From Planctomycetota bacterium (GTDB lineage: Bacteria > Planctomycetota > PLA2 > JAEUHO01), in assembly GCA_965223505.1 (NCBI GenBank), contig CBDCWP010000043.1, positions 32,213 to 96,212 on the forward strand: 64,000 bases of DNA, read 5' to 3'; not shown here. The text below continues a report on this DNA, generated by a model with database tools.

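Follow-up and report, generated by a model that had tools for sequence, protein, structure and literature searches.

Three MAGs each carry two diverged TlpA-like paralogs (the locus pairs L006/L009, L004/L010 and L007/L011), which share ~40% identity and have the TGA in both members. For gene P0011 of the homologous locus L001, and likewise for the window's ORFs P0001 and P0079, the longest contig recorded is exactly 137,013 bp. From this we infer that L001, which has no sequence overlap with the window, may be part of the window's contig; P0011 would then be a second copy of the TlpA-like family in the window's genome. The region L020:8268-10777 (MAG GCA_016779225.1) contains a distant member of the family, with FFAYW-U-GPC, for which the existing database entry, MBL6721759.1, is a truncated call of 258 aa named “TlpA family protein disulfide reductase” by NCBI. 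Upstream of this distant member, two further genes of the AhpC-TSA/Redoxin type, encoding 223 aa and 149 aa, stand in tandem. At L017:1729-2682 (contig Ga0124853_1346197), tblastn returns the homolog as four pieces in differing frames, probably as a result of indel errors in a low-coverage contig, and the TGA junction is intact despite this fragmentation.

In the Planctomycetota MAG MO_035.B4 (locus L004), the ortholog of the TlpA-like selenoprotein gene is followed, 4 kb further downstream, by a tRNA-Sec gene, and a large, Ser/Thr-kinase-like gene separates the two:

L004:14735-14833, tRNA-Sec gene with the anticodon TCA, scoring 70.9 bits in Rfam

Neither selA nor selB is visible on the L004 contig up to its end.

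The window contains a second gene with an in-frame TGA, which the first-pass annotation had proposed to encode a thioredoxin-like lipoprotein with a C-T-U motif, and the codon recurs in its relatives:

window 41340..42617, second gene with in-frame TGA (TGA 41628-41630)
L022:9944, TGA codon in a homolog
L023:9989, TGA codon in a homolog
L025:9953, TGA codon in a homolog
L026:9989, TGA codon in a homolog

The product has a lipoprotein-like N-terminus followed by ...LLWVMNGHPLGC-T-U-NNGVAGRRSVW.... We identified 629 homologs of this gene, and among the best 120 nearly all begin right after the TGA position. The TGA is kept in 5 of 5 loci read for this family, which include one from the cultured Phycisphaerae bacterium RAS1; the homolog at L024 has TGG (Trp), not Cys, at this position. 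Around the second TGA gene, window 34613..43371 is syntenic with L026, both containing an SSF symporter, TPR-CHAT protein genes and a CBM9 protein. The metagenome of ERZ25072999, the ENA sample from which L026 derives, thus holds close relatives of the window's organism. L001 and L018 are from this same sample.

A Pfam search of the 41340..42617 product gave no match, and in NCBIfam it matches only the VPGUxxT family of thioredoxin-like selenoproteins, and that faintly (E = 0.1). These proteins may represent a CxU selenoprotein family that is poorly described or undescribed.
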